Assembly: GCA_965247285.1 (NCBI GenBank)
Contig: CBDFHD010000002.1
Coordinates: forward strand, 364,499 to 428,498
Reading direction: 5' to 3'
Length of the DNA stretch: 64,000 nucleotides
Origin: Candidatus Poribacteria bacterium
GTDB taxonomy: Bacteria > Poribacteria > WGA-4E > WGA-3G
A program made the translations under genes and the position numbers. Below the pieces are notes generated by a model. It ran no database searches. It worked only from the letters and a program-made list of their open reading frames with translations, and was not told the DNA's origin. Shown piece after piece: positions 7,231 through 51,471 of this stretch; within the stretch, counting starts at the first letter, position 1; every line of letters starts with the position of its first letter.

Positions 7231-8847
7231 TTACTCGATGTTTATGACGCTAAGAATATTCTTAAGCAGCTGGGCTTTGGTCATCCTTCCCGTGTAACTT
7301 CTAACAAATTTTCCATCTTGGAACACAATATAAGTAGGATGTGTCCTAACCTGATATTTTCCGGTTGTTTGTCGACTATCCGCATCACTAACATTCATTT
7401 TCGCGACAGCAAACGTGTTCCGGTTCTCTAAAGCAATTTCGGCGACAACTGGCGCCATTTGTTGACAGAACGGTCAGCCGTCCTTTATAAACTCAAGCAC
7501 GATAGGGATTTCTGATCCAAGCACAAGCGTATTAAACGTCGCATCGGTGACTTCAAATGGGATGCCGGAGGTTTTACTGGCGGTGGTAAACCTAATGTCG
7601 ATGTCGGTTGAATTGCCAGCCGCGTCCTTGACTTTTCCCGCAATGACGTAGGTTATCTCGTTGTCAAGTTCTTTCCCTTTGACTAACTCAAGCGTCCCTT
7701 TCTTGCCTGCAATTTTGCCGAGCCAACCCGCATCAGCACCTGCTGTGGTTTGCAGTGCGATGTTGCCAGTTACCTCTTCGCTGAATTCAACTTCGATCCG
7801 CCCACTGCTGTTAAGTGCTTCGGGGTCAACGTCCTTATCACCGTCGTTGACGCTTCCGCTGGTAATTTTGGGTGCCTCGGTATCTGGAACACGGACGGTA
7901 TAGGTGAGCGTTTGGACGCCATCCGCCCAAACGATGGTCAATGCGAGTGCCCCTGGGTCGAAGGGACCCGTGATCTCCACAGTTTTGCGAATAGTTGTGG
8001 CATCACCCGTACTCACAGTAACGTCCTCTGGTGGGTTGTCAAAGGTAAGTGTGATGGTATCATCCACAGTAAGTTCCGAGTTGCCTGCTGGGTTCGCACT
8101 AACGAATGCGGCAGGGGGTCTGATGGTATAGTTGAGGGTCTGTGTGCCATCCACCCAGGTGACAGTCAATGTGAGTGCCCCTGGGTCGAAGGGACCCATG
8201 ATTTCCACAGTTTTGTCAGTGACTGTAGCGATGCCTGCGCTCACAGTAACGTCCTCTGGTGGATTATCAAAAGTAAGAGTGATGGCATCGTCGACAGCAA
8301 GTTCCGAGTTGATTGCTGGGTTCGCACTAACGAACGCTGCGGGGGTTCTGATGGTATAATCGAGCGTTTGGGTGCCGTCTGTCCAAGCAATCGTCAACGT
8401 AAGGGGACCCGAATTAAAGGGACCTGTAATTTCCACGGTTTTGTCAGTGACTGTAGCGACACCTGTGCTTACTGTAACGTCCTCTGGTGGGTTGTCAAAT
8501 GTAAGGGTGATAGTATCGTTCACAATCAGCGGCGAGCCGATGGCTGGGTTCGCGCGAACGAACGCTACAGGTGGGCGGACAGTTTTACCCAAGTGACTCG
8601 CGACAAGCGTCAAATCGAGGATATTGACGGTGCCGTCCCCGTTGACATCCGGGTTAGGGGTCTGATCTGCAGTGGATGTCGTGCCAAAATGCGCGGCGAC
8701 CAACGTCAGATCAAGGATGTTTATCACTCCGTCGGCGTTGACATCGGATGCTCTTAAAGCGTCGAGTTCCGCATCTTGTGTATAGCCTACGGTTAAATTA
8801 GTGAAAATTAAACAGGTCGTTAGGAATAAAAAAATGATTTTTCTCAT
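7231..8847 (-). CDS. Secreted dockerin + 3x76-aa repeat + Ig-like + thioredoxin protein, predicted selenoprotein (U-P-F-C), 538 aa
   Basis: ORFs 7474-8847 and 7231-7458 join in frame: VLEFIKDG-TGA-PFCQQMAPVV. The TGA (7474-7476) is at the first Cys of the Trx CxxC. A GGCGCC-AGTT-GTCGCC hairpin starts 17 nt downstream. Confidence 0.85.
7891..8574 (-). repeat. Three intragenic 228-bp (76-aa) repeats
   Basis: PxAFVxANPA...TITLTFDNPPEDVTVS...TVEIxGPF...xDGxQTLxYTxR occurs three times. Confidence 0.95.
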
Positions 8848-8971
8848 CTGTTTTTCTCCGTGGATAGTTTATGCTTGCGTGCTGTACCAATCTTGCACTA
8901 CTTCGGGAATCGTTTGCAGATTTTCGATTGTGGTTTTACCACCGAAGTTACAAGCAGGAAATGATATAACT

Positions 8972-9580
8972 TTATTCGGTTTCATCAATCCCTAAGATTC
9001 CAAGGATACGTTGCACCAATTCAGCCTTAGGCATTGCCCCACTGAAGCCTTGGGCAATTTCTCCGTCTTTGAATACGATATAGGTCGGTGTTCCACGAAT
9101 ATGATATTCGGCTGTTTTCTCCGGTTGGGTGGTTACATCTACCTTGACGAAACTAAAAATCTCGCGATATTCCAATGCTACTTCTGCGACCACCGGTCTC
9201 ATTAGTATGCAATATATTCAGGCATCGTTTTTAAATTCTACGACAATAGGCAGTTCAGAACCCAAGACGACATCGTCAAAAGTTGCATCCGTGACTTCAA
9301 ACGGGATGCCGGATCTCCTACCAAAATGGCTCGCGACGAGCGTTAAATCGAGGATATTGACGATGCCATCGCCATTGGCATCCGGGTTAAGGCTCTGATC
9401 TGCGGTGGGGGGCTCGCCGAAATGCGCGGCGACCAGCGTCAGATCAAGGATATTTATTACGCCGTCAGCATTGATGTCGGACGCGCTTAAGGGGTCAAAA
9501 TCCGTGTCCTGTGTGTAGCCTACGGTTAAAGGACTCAAGATTAAACAGATCGTTAGCAGTAAAACCGTAATTTTTTTCAT
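8972..9580 (-). CDS. Secreted dockerin-thioredoxin paralog, predicted selenoprotein (U-I-Y-C), 202 aa
   Basis: ORFs 9218-9580 and 8972-9202 join in frame: VVEFKNDA-TGA-IYCILMRPVV, with the TGA at 9218-9220. A GACC-GGT-GGTC hairpin lies at the matching position. Confidence 0.85.
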
Positions 9581-38321: not shown

Positions 38322-40295
38322 TTAATTCATCGGATACTCAGTAATAGAAGGTCCGTCTGCTATGTAGAACTTTCTGTCCGTAAACTGCCTCATAAGTTCG
38401 CCATTCTTTCTCTCGTCGAGAAACCTTGCATAGATAACATCGGATTTCAAAAGCGGATGGTTCTGTGGAAATACACTTCTATAACCCATAGGCCTATCTG
38501 ATCTGACGAACACGATGGCGTTCTCTATCTGCATCTTTTTGACGGCTTTCAGAATCTGCGCGTTTGCGCCCCAGTAGCCGTCCGAGTAGACTCTCAACAG
38601 ACTCGGTATGTTCGATGCGAAACCCAGGCAAAAGCAGGCTATGAGGATAATGGCAATGTAACCTTTCACTCTGCTTTTATCGACGATACCGAAGAGGTTG
38701 TGGACAATATCTGGCACGGCGGCTATTCCACGTGCGGTGAGCAGAACGAAGCCAGCAGTTGATGAAAACAGAACCCGGGGACCCAAACACCAGTCCTGAT
38801 GCCAGTAGGTAAAGTAGGCAAGTATCAGCGACGAGGCATAACCTATGAGAAGCAAATCCCAGGTATTTGCTTTTAAAGAGACGAATGCAAGGAAAACGAA
38901 GATCAGAGATGGAATAGGAAGCTCAAAGAGAAACTTGTTCAAGGCATTGAGGTTGTTGAGGGTCTGGATGAGACCCTGCCGGGGTGTATGAGGTTCACCC
39001 CAGCCACTATGACCAAAGCCGGGATTATGATCCTTGCCATGCAGGACGTGGTACCCGAAGGTAAGCGGATCGCCGTTCGTGAGAGAGTTGAACGTTAGGA
39101 GTCCTCCTAACATCACTCCGAACATTGCCAGCGCCGTGAAGCAGAGCACTGTAAAGCGAAATGATTCCTTCCTCGATGTCATAAACAGCATAACAAGTTT
39201 GGATATGGCATAGATAAGAAACGGAATGCCAATAGCAACAGCAGTCAGTGGGCGCATGTTGATCACATATCCCAGAGCAAACCCAGCCAGTAAAGCGTCC
39301 CTTGTCCTGAGTCTCTTTACCATACGCACAAATCCGAGCAGGAAAAGCTCGAAGAAGAAGAGTGTGGGTGTATGGTTCATATACTCAGACGACATGAAGA
39401 CCAAGAACGGTGACAAAGCACCCAGGAGTGCGGCCAGCCTTCCTATTCTTTCAGAGTATATTTCTTTCCCGATGAAATAGAGCACAACGATGCAGAGGGA
39501 TCCAAGCAAAGGGTTAATAATCCAGGGGGCGTGAAGAATGTGACCGAGACTCAGTAAGAGGGTCTGTCCCGGCGGATACTGGGAGTACCACCTGCCATTG
39601 TTAATCATGAGTGTGAAGTCGAAGAGTTCTCTGGGTTCAGGCGATGGAACAGTGAGCCTGCCCAGAAGAAATATCTTGGCATGGAAGACCTGGTCAACGC
39701 TGTCTGCGACGTGGGGTATGTGCTCGAAAAGGAAATAAGAACCCAGATTTGTTGCGGTGAAGACCAGGGCGAAAAGTGACGCGAGCAGCGTCCAAGCCGG
39801 CATCCCATAGAACCATCGCTCAATCTTTTGTCCTAGACTTCTCAGCTTAAAGATTAAAGTGTCCACCAGGGATGAGGCGCCGACGAATATCATCGTTATC
39901 CCCGCTGTTCCAAGCGTGAGGTATAACACAATTGGCCAGCCTTTCTCACTTGGCTTCAACGTGAAGAGTAGATATCCCAAAGCGAGAAGCAGAAGAGTCA
40001 GCCGCCGAGGCTGGCGGATAAGCGACTTAAGGCATTTCCGGGCCGAGGGGGTTATCAGAATCATGCCGACAAATAAAGCGGCTAACGACAGTAGAAAGGC
40101 ACCCGCAGATAAAGTGAACTCGGATCGGAAGAATTTAACCTCGATGAGCATATTCTCGCCAAGCGCGCTCTGGATATACTTCATCTTATAGGCCATTCCA
40201 GTTTCTCTAGCAGGATAAGTGATTTCGTTTGGCGCGCTCAGAGCCAGTATCAAGAAACCCGTTATTATCAGGATTAAACGCCAGATATATCTCAT
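38322..40295 (-). CDS. GT-C fold glycosyltransferase (ArnT/PMT, family 39-like)
   Basis: Multiple TM helices; PHVADS..QVF.AKIF, YSQYPPG, SSEYMNH and GPR motifs. Confidence 0.75.
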   Translation of the reverse strand: MRYIWRLILIITGFLILALSAPNEITYPARETGMAYKMKYIQSALGENMLIEVKFFRSEFTLSAGAFLLSLAALFVGMILITPSARKCLKSLIRQPRRLTLLLLALGYLLFTLKPSEKGWPIVLYLTLGTAGITMIFVGASSLVDTLIFKLRSLGQKIERWFYGMPAWTLLASLFALVFTATNLGSYFLFEHIPHVADSVDQVFHAKIFLLGRLTVPSPEPRELFDFTLMINNGRWYSQYPPGQTLLLSLGHILHAPWIINPLLGSLCIVVLYFIGKEIYSERIGRLAALLGALSPFLVFMSSEYMNHTPTLFFFELFLLGFVRMVKRLRTRDALLAGFALGYVINMRPLTAVAIGIPFLIYAISKLVMLFMTSRKESFRFTVLCFTALAMFGVMLGGLLTFNSLTNGDPLTFGYHVLHGKDHNPGFGHSGWGEPHTPRQGLIQTLNNLNALNKFLFELPIPSLIFVFLAFVSLKANTWDLLLIGYASSLILAYFTYWHQDWCLGPRVLFSSTAGFVLLTARGIAAVPDIVHNLFGIVDKSRVKGYIAIILIACFCLGFASNIPSLLRVYSDGYWGANAQILKAVKKMQIENAIVFVRSDRPMGYRSVFPQNHPLLKSDVIYARFLDERKNGELMRQFTDRKFYIADGPSITEYPMN

Positions 40296-40530: not shown

Positions 40531-41343
40531 CTATTGGGAAGCCTGCTTAACCTTACCCCATGTGGTCGTGAGGTGCCCCAATGGAGAAACTGGGAGAAAT
40601 TCCTCCATATTATTCATGACCGTCTCGATATCGTCTTTATCCAGCTCGCCTTTGAAAATGGCGACCTCGTCAATGACGCCGTTGAAAAATGAACCGCCTC
40701 TGTGATCACCCATGCTGACTCCGATTGCAAAGCCGTTCTCGTGATCAATGCTACCTTTGACCACGCCATGGTCAATAGGGCCTCCCTGCTGTTCTCCATC
40801 GACGTAGATATATCGCTCACCCTTTGTTCTGCTAAAAACCACCGCAAGATGATGCCACTTCCCGTCGTCAAGACCCGCGCCTCTGTTGTCACAAACTGTG
40901 ACAGGTTCAGTCTGCAGTCAGGTCCTGATTTGTCCTCCGCCACTGAACTTGACTTCAAACCCAGTCCAGTCTCCAGCCAGCCTTGTTTTACTCATTACGA
41001 AACCCGTGCCCGCATCCGTTTTAAACCAAGCGGTGGCCGTAAAGTCGGTCTTATCGCCGAGTTCAAACTCTTTCAGTTTGTCAGCACTTTCCGTCTCGAC
41101 CGAGGTCCCGCTGCCATCAAATTCCAGAGCACCGCCGAACTTACCTTCAACCCATTTGGGTCCGGCTATGAGCTCGCCGTCATTGCCATTGGGTGAGGAA
41201 TCTTTAGCTACATTTCCTTTACCTTCGTCAAAGAGCCATACCCCGATTGCGTCATCTACGCTAACTTCAGCTGCGCTTAGTAAAGGGAAGGCAGAAGTTA
41301 GACATGCGCAAGCTATGACCTGTATCACCAATACCCGTATCAT
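40531..41343 (-). CDS. Secreted LamG protein with in-frame TGA (Sec recoding or nonsense allele), 270 aa if read through
   Basis: GGQIRT-TGA(40918-40920)-LQTEPVTVCD...KWHHLAVVF is continuous in frame; ends TTTWGKVK. Confidence 0.7.
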
Positions 41344-41419
41344 CGATAGTTCCTCCTTACTTTCTGAGATAGAATGAAAATGGAAAAACCTGAGATAGAA
41401 TAGAAAATGGGAAAACCGT

Positions 41420-41605
41420 CCTCTTACAGCTTAATCTTACCCCATGTAATGGCAAGATTACCAGACGGTTTAACAGCCGTAATGGAAACTGCCAGCCCTG
41501 CATCAGGGTTCTAATATCAGCATCGGATAGAGCGATGTTGAAGAGGGCGACCTCATTGATGACTCCGTTGAAAAACGATCCTGCTCTGAGATCACCCAGA
41601 CTCAC
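41420..41605 (-). pseudogene. LamG C-terminal remnant with frameshift
   Basis: SFFNGVINEVALFN...LMQG then shifts frame to LAVSITAVKPSGNLAITWGKIKL*. No N-terminal part is present. Confidence 0.7.
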
Positions 41606-41938
41606 TCCACCTCTTCCACGTTGGTTTCCAAACTGTATTATCCAATTATACCCAACTCGATATATAATGTCAAGTTAACACCTCGATTTCGCCCAAATAA
41701 GCCAGTTGTCGATTGCAAAGATAACAGGAGTTGACCCAGCAACACTTCATCATTTCATCCGAACTAGTGTTGTGTCAACCCTCTGTTGAAGGATAGAGTC
41801 GCTTGAGTTTGATACGCGCATCTTTGGTAGTAAACCGCCATTGGACAGTCTCACGTCGCTCATTTCTTCGATTTTGCCATGCCTGAACCTCGCGCTTTAG
41901 GGTCTGTTGGTCAGATATACGTCGTCAACTACCCAAGC

Positions 41939-43231
41939 CTAAAGACTTGGGCTTGCGATAGCACTAAACAGCATTAGCTGTGTTGCGTTTTGCAAGTCCA
42001 AATCTCGTGCTTCGTTCGTGTTTCCCGCTTCAGTGAGGGTGGTAACCCACCGCTCTCCACGAAGGGCCGCAGCAGCCCTGAAAAGTATGTTTATCGCAGC
42101 GTTGTGGTCTCGGTCTAAAGACGTGTCACAAGACTGACAATCGAAGGTGCGTATCGCCAGAGAGAGCTTCTTTGGCGACTTCTGACCGCAGCAAGAGCAA
42201 GTTTGTGAGGTGTTCTTGGGATTCACTTGGTGGAAGTGGAAACCGTCTCTTTCGGCTATGTTTCCACACCACTCAAAGAACTTACCCCAAGACGCATCAG
42301 AGATACTCTTGCTGAGGTGTTTATTCTGAACCATATTGGAAATGCCCAAATCTTCAGCGATAAGGACGTTATTCTTCTGATGATGATAAAGTTTGTAAAC
42401 GAGTTTACCCATAAAATCTTTTCGCTTGTTTGTTGTGCGCTCATGGTGCAGGGCAGTCGTGTGAACGGCTTTTTGCCAGCGGTTGCTCCCTTTCTTTCGG
42501 CGCGATTGTGTTTTAGAGTGTTTATGGAGCAAGCCTTCTGCTTTACGATACCAACGTGGGTTATCCTCTTTTTCGCCTTCAGAAGTCGTCAGATAGTGCG
42601 TTGTCCCCATATCCACGGCAATCGCAGCAGTCGGTTCAACTTTCGCGGTGTTAGGCATCTCAGAAGTGATATGAGCATACCAACCCGACGCTTTTTTCAC
42701 AAGAGACACTTCTTTCGGGTCTCCTTCTAAAGGACGATGCATGTATATCTTAACTTCGCCTAACTTCGGCACTTTTAAGCGATTGTGCCGGTAGTTGGTT
42801 TCTATGATTGGGTTCTCGCGAACGCGTATTGTCTGTTTGTCAGTGTCTTTCGTCTTTTTACGAACCACTTTGGTATATTTTCGTAGACTCCATGTCAGAG
42901 AACGCACGCGCTTTTTGTAGCGAGGGTATCCTTTTTTCGCAGCGTTTTCTTTACAACGTTTACGGAAGGCAGCAAACGCTTTATCGTTTCTCCGTAGGGC
43001 ATGGTTCTGAAAATCTTGGGGAACCTCGCGGAAATCGTCATATTTCTCACGCGCTGCCGTGAGAAGTGTCTGCTGGTCAGTGAGCGAAACAAAAATGCCT
43101 TCTGTTTCATACGCCACAGTCCGATCATGGCGGGCAGAGTTCTGTAACTCACATAGGTGGTCTAACCACGCTAATAATGTCGTTTCCTGTGCTTGTGTCG
43201 GATACACAGGATAGGTAAAAGTCAATTTCAT
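41939..43231 (-). CDS. tnpB: RNA-guided endonuclease TnpB
   Basis: TFTYPVYPT HTH start, RuvC AVDMGT / IAEDL / DRDHNAAINI and CSCC...CQSC finger. Confidence 0.95.
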   Translation of the reverse strand: MKLTFTYPVYPTQAQETTLLAWLDHLCELQNSARHDRTVAYETEGIFVSLTDQQTLLTAAREKYDDFREVPQDFQNHALRRNDKAFAAFRKRCKENAAKKGYPRYKKRVRSLTWSLRKYTKVVRKKTKDTDKQTIRVRENPIIETNYRHNRLKVPKLGEVKIYMHRPLEGDPKEVSLVKKASGWYAHITSEMPNTAKVEPTAAIAVDMGTTHYLTTSEGEKEDNPRWYRKAEGLLHKHSKTQSRRKKGSNRWQKAVHTTALHHERTTNKRKDFMGKLVYKLYHHQKNNVLIAEDLGISNMVQNKHLSKSISDASWGKFFEWCGNIAERDGFHFHQVNPKNTSQTCSCCGQKSPKKLSLAIRTFDCQSCDTSLDRDHNAAINILFRAAAALRGERWVTTLTEAGNTNEARDLDLQNATQLMLFSAIASPSL

Positions 43232-50289: not shown

Positions 50290-51471
50290 CACAAGTCAAC
50301 GCAATTTGGCGGTTCCAGCAGGAGTGGCACTGGACTCGGCTCTTTTGGTTCAGGCTCCGGTTTTGAACAAGGACGGACACAAGGCAGTGGCAAGCTAAAT
50401 GCACTCGTGGAGGGTGCGGGTGCTGCGAATATCAATGCTTCGTTATCAGATGTAACAGGGAACATGGTTCTGGGTAACGGTGTACCACAGCTTTCCAAGG
50501 GAAGCCCTGGTGCTATTATTCAGGGGCGCGGCAAAGAGATTATTGGAAGCCTCAATCTCGTCCGTCTTGATGACCCGTTACATCCGAACCTTGATTTCTG
50601 AGGCAGCGGCATCGGACACCTCCGATTCGGGGCAGGTCTGCCCTATTTAGTCAAGTCGCTGAATACAGAAACAGGCATCCAAACCCAAATGGTTGACGCG
50701 GTCCAAATTACGGATGCAGCGTTCTTTGAGTCACCGATTATCTTTATGGAACCGATTTCCGGTTCCTCAGGAAAACTCCAGAACGGATTACTGAACGGTC
50801 AGGCTATCTGGCAAACGAAAGGGGATCGTCCTTCCTTCGGTTATACTGATCGGGAGGCGCAGCGGATTCGCGAATATGTCATAAACCGTGGCGGGTTTAT
50901 CTATATGCCCACGCACGGAAACACGGAATTGGCAATGCAACCCGCGCTTCGCATCCTGCGTCAAATTCTCCCTGAATACCACTTGACCACTATTCCTAAG
51001 GATCACGAGATTTACAATGCTTTCTATGAGTTGAACGGACCGCTCCGATTTCCTGTTCGGAAAATGGGGAGTACCATTCTCCATCACGGTCCCTACGGTC
51101 AGTTACAGGGCGTTTTCATTGACGACCGACTCGCTGTTCTCGTTGATACGGAAGCAATGATACACGTGATGGATGGGGCAGTGCAGAAACCTTTCTTCGG
51201 TCACTATCAGGACCGGAATAAGATTTTAGAGGAGTTCGCACCCGCTGCCGCACGGCAACTCATTAACGTTGTCATCTACGCGGTAACACATGGGAGTATC
51301 TCGGATTATAGCAACTATATCCCCGAAGACGCGCTCGCCGGTGGAGAGACAGACAACATTCCGAAAAAGGCACCGGCTGCCGCAAATCTCTTTAAAATCC
51401 GTGCAATCCCTGTACTCCGAGATTCACACAGGAAAATCTTTGAGGTAACGCATCTCAATCCTAATCTTTGA
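50290..51471 (+). CDS. DUF4159-like protein, apparently 5'-truncated, with in-frame TGA at 50599-50601
   Basis: The frame opens after TAA at 50287 with a Gly/Ser linker. PNLDF-TGA-GSGIGHLRFGAGLPYL continues into GGFIY, IP.DHEIY and G.FIDDRLAV. Confidence 0.6.

Follow-up and report, generated by a model that had tools for sequence, protein, structure and literature searches.

Prokaryotic selenoproteins described so far are overwhelmingly oxidoreductases or proteins of the thioredoxin fold, and a 2026 review catalogues 119 prokaryotic families and subfamilies. Here, we describe a gene for a secreted LamG-type protein from a Candidatus Poribacteria bacterium, Poribacteria being known as sponge symbionts, which is interrupted by an in-frame TGA and, judging from comparative sequence data, is very probably a genuine selenoprotein gene with selenium insertion at this codon. 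The gene lies on the minus strand at positions 40531 to 41343 of the window, i.e., the whole stretch of 64,000 nucleotides analyzed (assembly GCA_965247285.1, contig CBDFHD010000002.1, positions 364,499 to 428,498). A LamG, laminin, lectin or concanavalin-type selenoprotein is not mentioned in the text of the 2026 review, and nothing relevant on a LamG, laminin G or concanavalin-like selenoprotein was found in the deep-Sep paper or in full-text literature searches. This agrees with the original prediction, made from the sequence alone, that no familiar selenoprotein class is concerned. Apparently, the gene represents a new selenoprotein family employing the ordinary bacterial mechanism of selenocysteine (Sec) recoding.

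With the selenoproteins depending on SelB and a bacterial selenocysteine insertion sequence (bSECIS), for example that encoded by fdhF of Escherichia coli, the locus shares the in-frame UGA, a stem-loop within the coding sequence having an apical G-U about 20 nucleotides (nt) downstream, the components SelA, SelB, SelD and tRNA-Sec, and the existence of Cys homologues. In contrast to formate dehydrogenase H, the product of fdhF, the LamG protein is not an oxidoreductase but a lectin-type jelly roll, and its probable recoding signal is a minimal stem of 6–7 bp with a triloop. The SECIS element of fdhF has a bulged U, whereas the LamG hairpin is without one. Export and a Sec residue near a Cys are in common with the exported UxxC/CxxU selenoproteins of thioredoxin fold (thioredoxin-, DsbA- and Prx-like), including the products of two genes of the window (about 7231–9580) which bear similar small hairpins 17–19 nt after the UGA. 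However, with its jelly-roll fold and a U-x8-C motif spanning a beta-hairpin instead of U-x-x-C at the start of a helix, the LamG protein does not belong to the thioredoxin fold, and its ancestral Cys pair looks structural, not catalytic. In architecture, it resembles the secreted LamG family of Poribacteria (PF13385, about 250–280 amino acids), whose database entries are called 'LamG domain-containing protein [Candidatus Poribacteria bacterium]', sharing the signal peptide, a VGxWLFDEG...NGNDG block, the LamG domain and an AVSPxGxLxTTWGxIK tail. The hairpin IRT[U/C]LQTxPxTVCDNRG with its Cys/Sec pair, however, is found only in the subfamily described here, while the other paralogues reach at most 40% identity to it and lack internal TGA codons. 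In the same genome (G000; 5.65 Mb in three contigs), such secreted LamG paralogues of about 260 amino acids gave about 85 tblastn matches, all of them ending in ...AVSPxGKLxTTWGxIK with an invariant Trp; this tail may be a sorting or anchoring signal.

Conservation of the interrupted LamG gene

Read on the minus strand from 41343 to 40531, the frame encodes 270 residues with a single internal stop, the TGA at codon 142 (40920–40918), in the context ...GGGQIRT-TGA-LQTEPVTVCDNRG... or, at greater length, ...FSGGGQIRT-TGA-LQTEPVTVCDNRGAG...; T-U-LQTEPVTVCDNR would be the tryptic peptide containing residue 142. Translation thus reproduces exactly the initially proposed arrangement IRT-TGA-LQTEPVTV-C with a Cys nine residues after the TGA. 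The gene and its expression signals comprise the following features.

40531..41343, minus strand: complete coding sequence of the putative LamG selenoprotein, 270 codons plus TAG stop, UGA-Sec at codon 142 (translation; gapless 813-nt orthologues in 19 species; ratio of nonsynonymous to synonymous substitution rates, dN/dS, 0.23)
41269..41343, minus strand: predicted signal peptide, codons 1–25 (MIRVLVIQVIACACLTSAFPLLSAA/EV), probably cleaved after LSAA (sequence; N-terminal helix 3–17 in the structure model, followed by a low predicted local distance difference test score, pLDDT, at 18–24)
40627..41064, minus strand: Laminin_G_3 (ConA-like jelly-roll) domain, residues 94–239 (Pfam PF13385, AlphaFold2 beta-sandwich, Foldseek)
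40918..40920, minus strand: UGA codon 142, very probably read as selenocysteine (TGA in 19/19 orthologues; Cys in 7/7 homologues of 52–76% identity)
40891..40893, minus strand: Cys151 codon TGT, inside the 3' arm of the hairpin, putative partner of Sec142 (Cys inventory, strand register, co-conservation)
40887..40903, minus strand: bSECIS-like hairpin U-GUCACA-GUU-UGUGAC-A, perfect 6-bp stem, 7 bp with the flanking U-A, GUU triloop
40546..40572, minus strand: C-terminal family motif LTTTWGKVK, residues 258–266, intact (alignment; W262 invariant across 136 sequences)
41352..41358, minus strand: Shine-Dalgarno sequence AAGGAGG, 8 nt 5' of the ATG (sequence; GGAG core kept in 19/19 loci)
41645..41673, minus strand: sigma-70-like promoter TTGACA-17-TATAAT, 12/12 consensus matches, about 300 nt upstream of the gene (sequence and orthologous loci)

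With 81 bits (E = 1.3e-22), the Pfam match to PF13385 lies above the cut-off of 27.6. In the list of open reading frames of the window, the gene is split into two entries of 141 and 103 amino acids, and standard gene callers treat as a stop the internal TGA which is present in the genes of 19 of 19 species. A separate translation of the C-terminal half from a GTG at 40842 was considered and rejected: it lacks a Shine-Dalgarno sequence, and codons 143–167, lying 5' of this GTG, are equally conserved.

Orthologues were sought by six-frame searches in 176 Poribacteria genomes, 65 from species of the same genus and 111 others, and were found in 19 of the 65 but in none of the 111. All 19 extend gaplessly over 813 nt at 93.7–97.7% nucleotide identity, have TGA at codon 142 and do not show any further internal stop; the refuting case of a TGA private to one strain is hence not what is observed. 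The 201 variable sites are distributed over first, second and third codon positions as 52/36/113. Pairwise Nei-Gojobori comparison of the 19 orthologues gives dN/dS values of 0.39 for the signal peptide (codons 1–25), 0.227 for the mature N-terminal part (codons 26–141) and 0.198 after the TGA (codons 143–270). Both halves, the signal peptide and the TTWGKVK tail are intact, as stated earlier. At least 240 substitutions have accumulated among the orthologues (tree length 0.51 per site) without producing a new stop, for which P ≤ 4e-4 under neutrality, given that a random substitution in this gene creates a stop in about 3.2% of cases.

A neutral internal control is provided by the decayed C-terminal remnant of another LamG gene, whose presence next to the gene had been noticed before and which is now placed between the promoter and the selenoprotein gene:

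about 41424..41605, minus strand: LamG gene remnant with frameshifts, stops and deletions differing between species

The remnant is common to most of the orthologous loci and probably part of the 5' leader of the selenoprotein gene; depending on the species, it shows indels of 4, 2 or 1 nt or in-frame stops, or is deleted completely. As it decays in the same genomes, pseudogenes visibly degrade over this time span, unlike the TGA-containing gene. Of the 19 orthologous loci, 18 have a TTGACA-N16-18-TAnnnT site upstream of the gene; the -35 hexamer is conserved and the -10 element is TATAAT at most loci, but the sequence between the two varies. At two loci (L038 and L040), the remnant is lost and a similar GTTAACTTGACA...TATAAT cassette is located about 120–135 nt from the ATG. 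Conservation of the TGA, selection on both halves and intact expression signals together imply that translation must proceed past codon 142.

For the residue inserted there, a collection of 5.8 billion proteins was searched, yielding seven full-length homologues (P0001–P0007, 265–270 amino acids; 76, 73, 62, 58, 59, 53 and 53% identity), all on metagenome contigs. In the alignment, every one of the seven has Cys at the position of the TGA and retains Cys151, within the motif IRT-C-LQTxPATV-C-DNRG, and in all five cases in which the DNA was read (L046–L050) the codon aligned to TGA is TGC, one base away. A further contig with the Cys form (L054) carries a 1-nt insertion. Beyond this group, a homologue of 39% identity has Tyr in both columns 142 and 151, and Cys is essentially never found in the two columns among 110 more distant family members. 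The two Cys residues thus are either both present or both absent in the family, indicating that they were gained or lost as a pair. None of about 75 full-length paralogues of the same genome has Cys in column 142, which is occupied by W, F, Y, G, R or H in a hypervariable loop; owing to this variability, the same-genome paralogues have no power to decide between Sec and Trp. The original prediction had rated Trp as equally plausible at this position, but this assessment did not hold, since homologues of 52–76% identity invariably show Cys and Trp, Phe or Tyr appear only in paralogues of at most 40% identity. TGA orthologues in Sec-using organisms, Cys homologues and a downstream SECIS element are the criteria by which selenoproteins are recognized (PMC12013277, PMC13188914). 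TGA orthologues and Cys homologues, together with the downstream hairpin, hence form the standard signature of a true selenoprotein.

Putative recoding signal and selenocysteine machinery

The core hairpin GTCACA-GTT-TGTGAC, proposed beforehand as a perfect 6-bp stem with a G in the loop, is indeed found at 40902–40888 and begins 15 nt after the TGA. According to published bSECIS rules (PMC13188914, Fig. 2 legend), the apical loop should comprise 3–9 nt and the upper stem 4–16 bp, the first or second loop position should be a G, with G or U usually coming next, the distance from UGA to loop should be 16–37 nt and the minimum free energy at most -7.5 kcal/mol. The LamG hairpin conforms to all of these with its 3-nt loop GUU, a stem of 6–7 bp, G followed by U and a spacing of 21 nt, and passes the energy threshold narrowly at -7.7 kcal/mol. 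Of the 19 Sec species, 17 have a folding energy of -7.7 kcal/mol and the other two have -6.5 and -2.6 kcal/mol, whereas five Cys forms give values of 0, 0, -0.9, -1.5 and -2.6 kcal/mol. This difference in strength is mostly due to a single base in codon 148, encoding Ala (GCY) in Cys forms and Val (GUC) in Sec forms, by which the stem is completed. As a background, a perfect stem of 6 bp or more that obeys the same loop and spacing rules occurs after 1.7% of 10,076 TGA triplets sampled from the genome; hence, the hairpin is uncommon but not decisive by itself, and the comparative evidence carries the weight.

The machinery for Sec synthesis and incorporation is encoded in the genome. SelA is present (E = 1.5e-157), a single tRNA-Sec is the sole tRNA with a UCA anticodon, and selB directly adjoins it at G000:C2:471145-473188, on the contig of the window and about 43 kb beyond the right edge of the latter. 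The selD gene (C3:3606087-3607010) has an in-frame TGA of its own in the context ...KSAG-TGA-ASKL..., i.e., SelD itself is a selenoprotein, followed after 12 nt by the hairpin GCUC-CGGGU-GAGC. In the two UxxC thioredoxin genes of the window, the corresponding hairpins GGCGCC-AGUU-GUCGCC and GACC-GGU-GGUC start 17 and 19 nt after the UGA. The LamG, SelD and thioredoxin hairpins thus each have G-U in a small loop which starts 16–23 nt downstream of the UGA. Within the genus, SelA was detected in 62 of 65 species genomes, including each of the 49 high-quality ones. Of the 19 genomes carrying the LamG selenoprotein gene, 18 have SelA, the exception being a genome of 83% completeness. On the other hand, TGA is in regular use as a stop codon, terminating 22% of those open frames that have 400 or more codons, and none of about 75 LamG paralogues of this genome (at least 180 aligned residues) has an internal stop. 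These two observations exclude a reassigned genetic code. Three paralogues flagged by tblastn as containing stops turned out to have normal terminal stops only. Taken together, the conserved TGA, the Cys homologues, the Sec machinery and the bSECIS-conforming hairpin support the initial proposal of Sec at this codon.

The proposed Sec142-Cys151 pair, its origin and competing explanations

For structure prediction by AlphaFold2, the alignment of 136 sequences was used with U read as C. The resulting all-beta model (mean pLDDT 82.9, predicted template modelling score 0.80) has pLDDT values above 90 around residues 131–160, where strands 138–144 and 149–154 form a hairpin with a four-residue turn. 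In the register of these strands, residue 144 is opposite 149, 143 opposite 150 and 142 opposite 151. C151 is the sole Cys of the mature Sec protein, as Cys inventories of the orthologues reveal (C12 and C14 of the signal peptide are not conserved, being substituted in several orthologues), and thus only one intramolecular partner is possible for Sec142. When the subfamily is divided into windows of 17 residues, segment 139–155 ranks among the top three in conservation, whereas in the wider family this region is hypervariable. Foldseek returned 363 PDB matches at E ≤ 1e-3 which, among the matches listed, are ConA-like jelly rolls. The same beta-sandwich is found in the lectin-like N-terminal subdomain of clostridial neurotoxin binding domains, in NTNH and in domain 4 of the GH43 arabinanase AbnA, with template modelling scores of about 0.55–0.64 on the query and E-values down to 5e-11. 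However, identities to these structures are only 12–17%, the toxin architecture is absent and none of them contains Sec, so that the likeness is a generic one of fold. Of the initial suggestion of a cross-strand Sec-Cys pair in a lectin-like jelly roll, the fold is thereby borne out by model and Pfam match, and the pairing is favored by the 142/151 register and the joint gain or loss of the two Cys, while the cross-strand contact itself is indicated indirectly. Likewise, the structure prediction with Cys substituted, which had been proposed as a check, places residues 142 and 151 in register and thus speaks for their proximity by way of strand register.

The following sequence of events best accounts for these data. 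At the ribosome reaching UGA142, SelB carrying Sec-tRNA(Sec) would be recruited by the element UGUCACA-GUU-UGUGACA, whose GU-containing loop starts 21 nt downstream, and Sec would be inserted in place of termination. The 270-residue precursor would then be exported by means of its signal peptide and fold as a ConA/LamG-type beta jelly roll, in which Sec142 would come to lie opposite Cys151 on the beta-hairpin, most likely forming a selenenylsulfide that stands in for the disulfide of the Cys-Cys homologues. The pair would thereby be placed in a highly conserved, subfamily-specific loop, IRT[U/C]LQTxPxTVCDNRG. For a structural Se-S bridge between Sec142 and Cys151 as such, we lean cautiously towards acceptance on the basis of the model; in our reading, an ancestral cross-strand disulfide in the specificity loop has been replaced by a selenenylsulfide. 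Substitution of Sec for one Cys is familiar from engineered selenenylsulfide and diselenide replacements of disulfides, where bond formation is facile and the redox potential lower. The difference between Se-S and S-S bonds in this respect bears on the option of a cross-link that is more readily formed and more resistant to reduction. Those replacements are synthetic, whereas the LamG pair would be naturally evolved and located in an exported bacterial protein. A secreted lectin-like selenoprotein would extend the use of selenium to an extracellular binding scaffold and provide a natural model of a cross-strand selenenylsulfide.

As to its origin, the Sec form probably arose from a Cys ancestor by a TGC to TGA change in one clade of this Sec-using genus. 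Given the Cys forms as outgroup and the one-base difference between TGC and TGA, a single origin in the ancestor of the carrier clade is most likely. The codons for T-V-C-D would have offered a pre-existing weak palindrome at the right distance, and replacement of Ala148 by Val (GCC to GUC) would then have completed the stem. In line with this, the Cys homologue P0003 shows GCCACA-GUU-UGUGAC, a hairpin of 4 bp plus 1 at matching distance. The sequences suggest that decoding of the new TGA was possible from the outset, albeit at low efficiency, and was improved by the Ala148Val exchange, the order of events being deduced from the extant forms. Sec and Cys forms together present a testable picture of how a SECIS element emerges from existing coding sequence. 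If true, the locus records the birth of a selenoprotein in which a palindromic T-V-C-D stretch acted as proto-SECIS, a TGC to TGA change was immediately decodable and one Ala to Val exchange brought improvement. More tentatively, and with a fair measure of doubt, Sec142 and Cys151 may constitute a redox-active or chalcogen- or metal-binding center in a ligand-specificity loop, which would make the protein, along with this proto-SECIS birth, the first natural lectin-type Sec scaffold that is exported and not of thioredoxin fold.

Several observations weigh against the selenoprotein assignment or the pairing. The contact between residues 142 and 151 is deduced from strand register and is not a measured distance. 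The hairpin is short, and the T-V-C-D codons (ACA/UGU, GUC/GAC) by themselves account for part of its palindrome. Compensatory changes are absent from its nearly invariant sequence, and the invariance of five third positions within it is marginal as evidence: with 42% of all third positions variable, its estimated probability is about 0.07. In one Sec species (L022), Ala148 causes a mismatch and the hairpin, at -2.6 kcal/mol, equals that of one Cys form. An Rfam scan of 40700–41100 at E ≤ 10 did not give a SECIS match; as the hairpin comprises only 15–17 nt, this result was treated as uninformative. The Cys homologues stem exclusively from unbinned metagenome contigs of 1.3–11.9 kb, and a Cys-form orthologue is absent from the 176 Poribacteria species genomes searched. 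Column 142 is often W, F or Y in distant paralogues (35–40% identity), the loop of which is differently built. Finally, an orthologue of 95% identity on a Logan contig (L053, SRR22586459) has a 4-nt deletion at nt of about 362 with TGA and hairpin intact, representing either a lost copy or an assembly error.

Explanations dispensing with selenium have to be measured against the same data. Leaky termination, with UGA142 being read at low level by a near-cognate tRNA such as that for Trp, Cys or Arg and sufficient full-length product arising for selection even in the absence of selenium, could draw on the weak termination context UGA-C and on the frequency of Trp, Phe and Tyr at column 142 of distant paralogues. 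It is very unlikely, however, considering that the close homologues have Cys (TGC) and not Trp, that the hairpin of SECIS model type is stronger specifically in the TGA clade, and that the organism possesses a complete Sec machinery plus other UxxC selenoprotein genes with similar hairpins; moreover, a nonsense allele fixed in 19 species without reversion to TGC or TGG would be hard to explain. Still less credible is an inherited nonsense mutation, by which the gene would be a shared pseudogene or only a 141-residue N-terminal fragment would be made. Although TGA is a normal stop in this genome and one metagenome contig has the 4-nt deletion in the orthologue, this idea is at odds with the dN/dS of 0.20 past the TGA, the third-position bias and the lack of indels and stops over at least 240 substitutions, with the decay of the neighboring true pseudogene in the same genomes, and with the fact that a single-domain beta sandwich cut in half would hardly fold. 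The chance of a genome-wide reassignment of TGA to Trp or Gly (code 4 or 25) is negligible: nothing except the open frame speaks for it, while TGA closes 22% of the long frames, no tRNA but tRNA-Sec has a UCA anticodon, and internal TGA codons are absent from SelA, SelB and about 75 full-length LamG paralogues checked.

With Sec insertion accepted, the residue might act as a reactive center instead of a structural cross-link, either in redox catalysis with Cys151 resolving or in binding of a metal or metalloid, with the lectin fold as a mere scaffold for it. The loop 139–155 with its U/C position, highly conserved in the subfamily and hypervariable in the wider family, behaves as a specificity or active site would, and most known selenoproteins use Sec catalytically (PMC13188914). 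Nevertheless, we regard this role as rather improbable, since the protein has neither a thioredoxin fold nor a CxxU/UxxC motif and U-x8-C across a beta-hairpin resembles the position of a structural disulfide; furthermore, no reductase or redox gene is evident adjoining the gene, its neighbors encoding a PMT_2-type glycosyltransferase and a transposase.

Neighboring genes and other in-frame TGAs

The genes flanking the LamG selenoprotein gene were assigned by domain matches:

38322..40295, minus strand: multi-pass membrane protein of 657 amino acids with PMT_2/STT3-type (GT-C glycosyltransferase) matches, directly 3' of the LamG gene
41939..43231, minus strand: TnpB/OrfB_IS605 protein of 430 amino acids with a Cas12f1-like TNB domain

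Synteny of the PMT_2/STT3-type gene extends to at least seven orthologous loci, and the TnpB gene is private to genome G000, homology with 18 orthologous loci ending at about 41767. Synteny was not found between Sec-form and Cys-form loci, the neighbors being a PMT_2 glycosyltransferase versus DUF6785 or a histidine kinase.

The LamG gene adds to signs of a large and mostly unannotated Poribacteria selenoproteome that is fragmented by gene callers. Four other in-frame TGAs were noted in the window, at 7474–7476 and 9218–9220 on the minus strand and at 50599 and 53457 on the plus strand. Two of these are in UxxC thioredoxin-like contexts, G-TGA-PFC and A-TGA-IYC, with small G-U-loop hairpins; one of the four precedes GGGCA-GGUC-UGCCC, and one is a TGA-TGC with a weak hairpin. 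In other genomes, two LamG paralogues have a single in-frame TGA as well. In L052 (G027:C20:700-2000), it is found in the context ...ANSHG-TGA-TIHLD... with no Cys nearby, whereas L051 (G010:C17:241800-243100) reads ...IGGCGV-TGA-DAGGNFF..., which amounts to a C-x-x-U arrangement.

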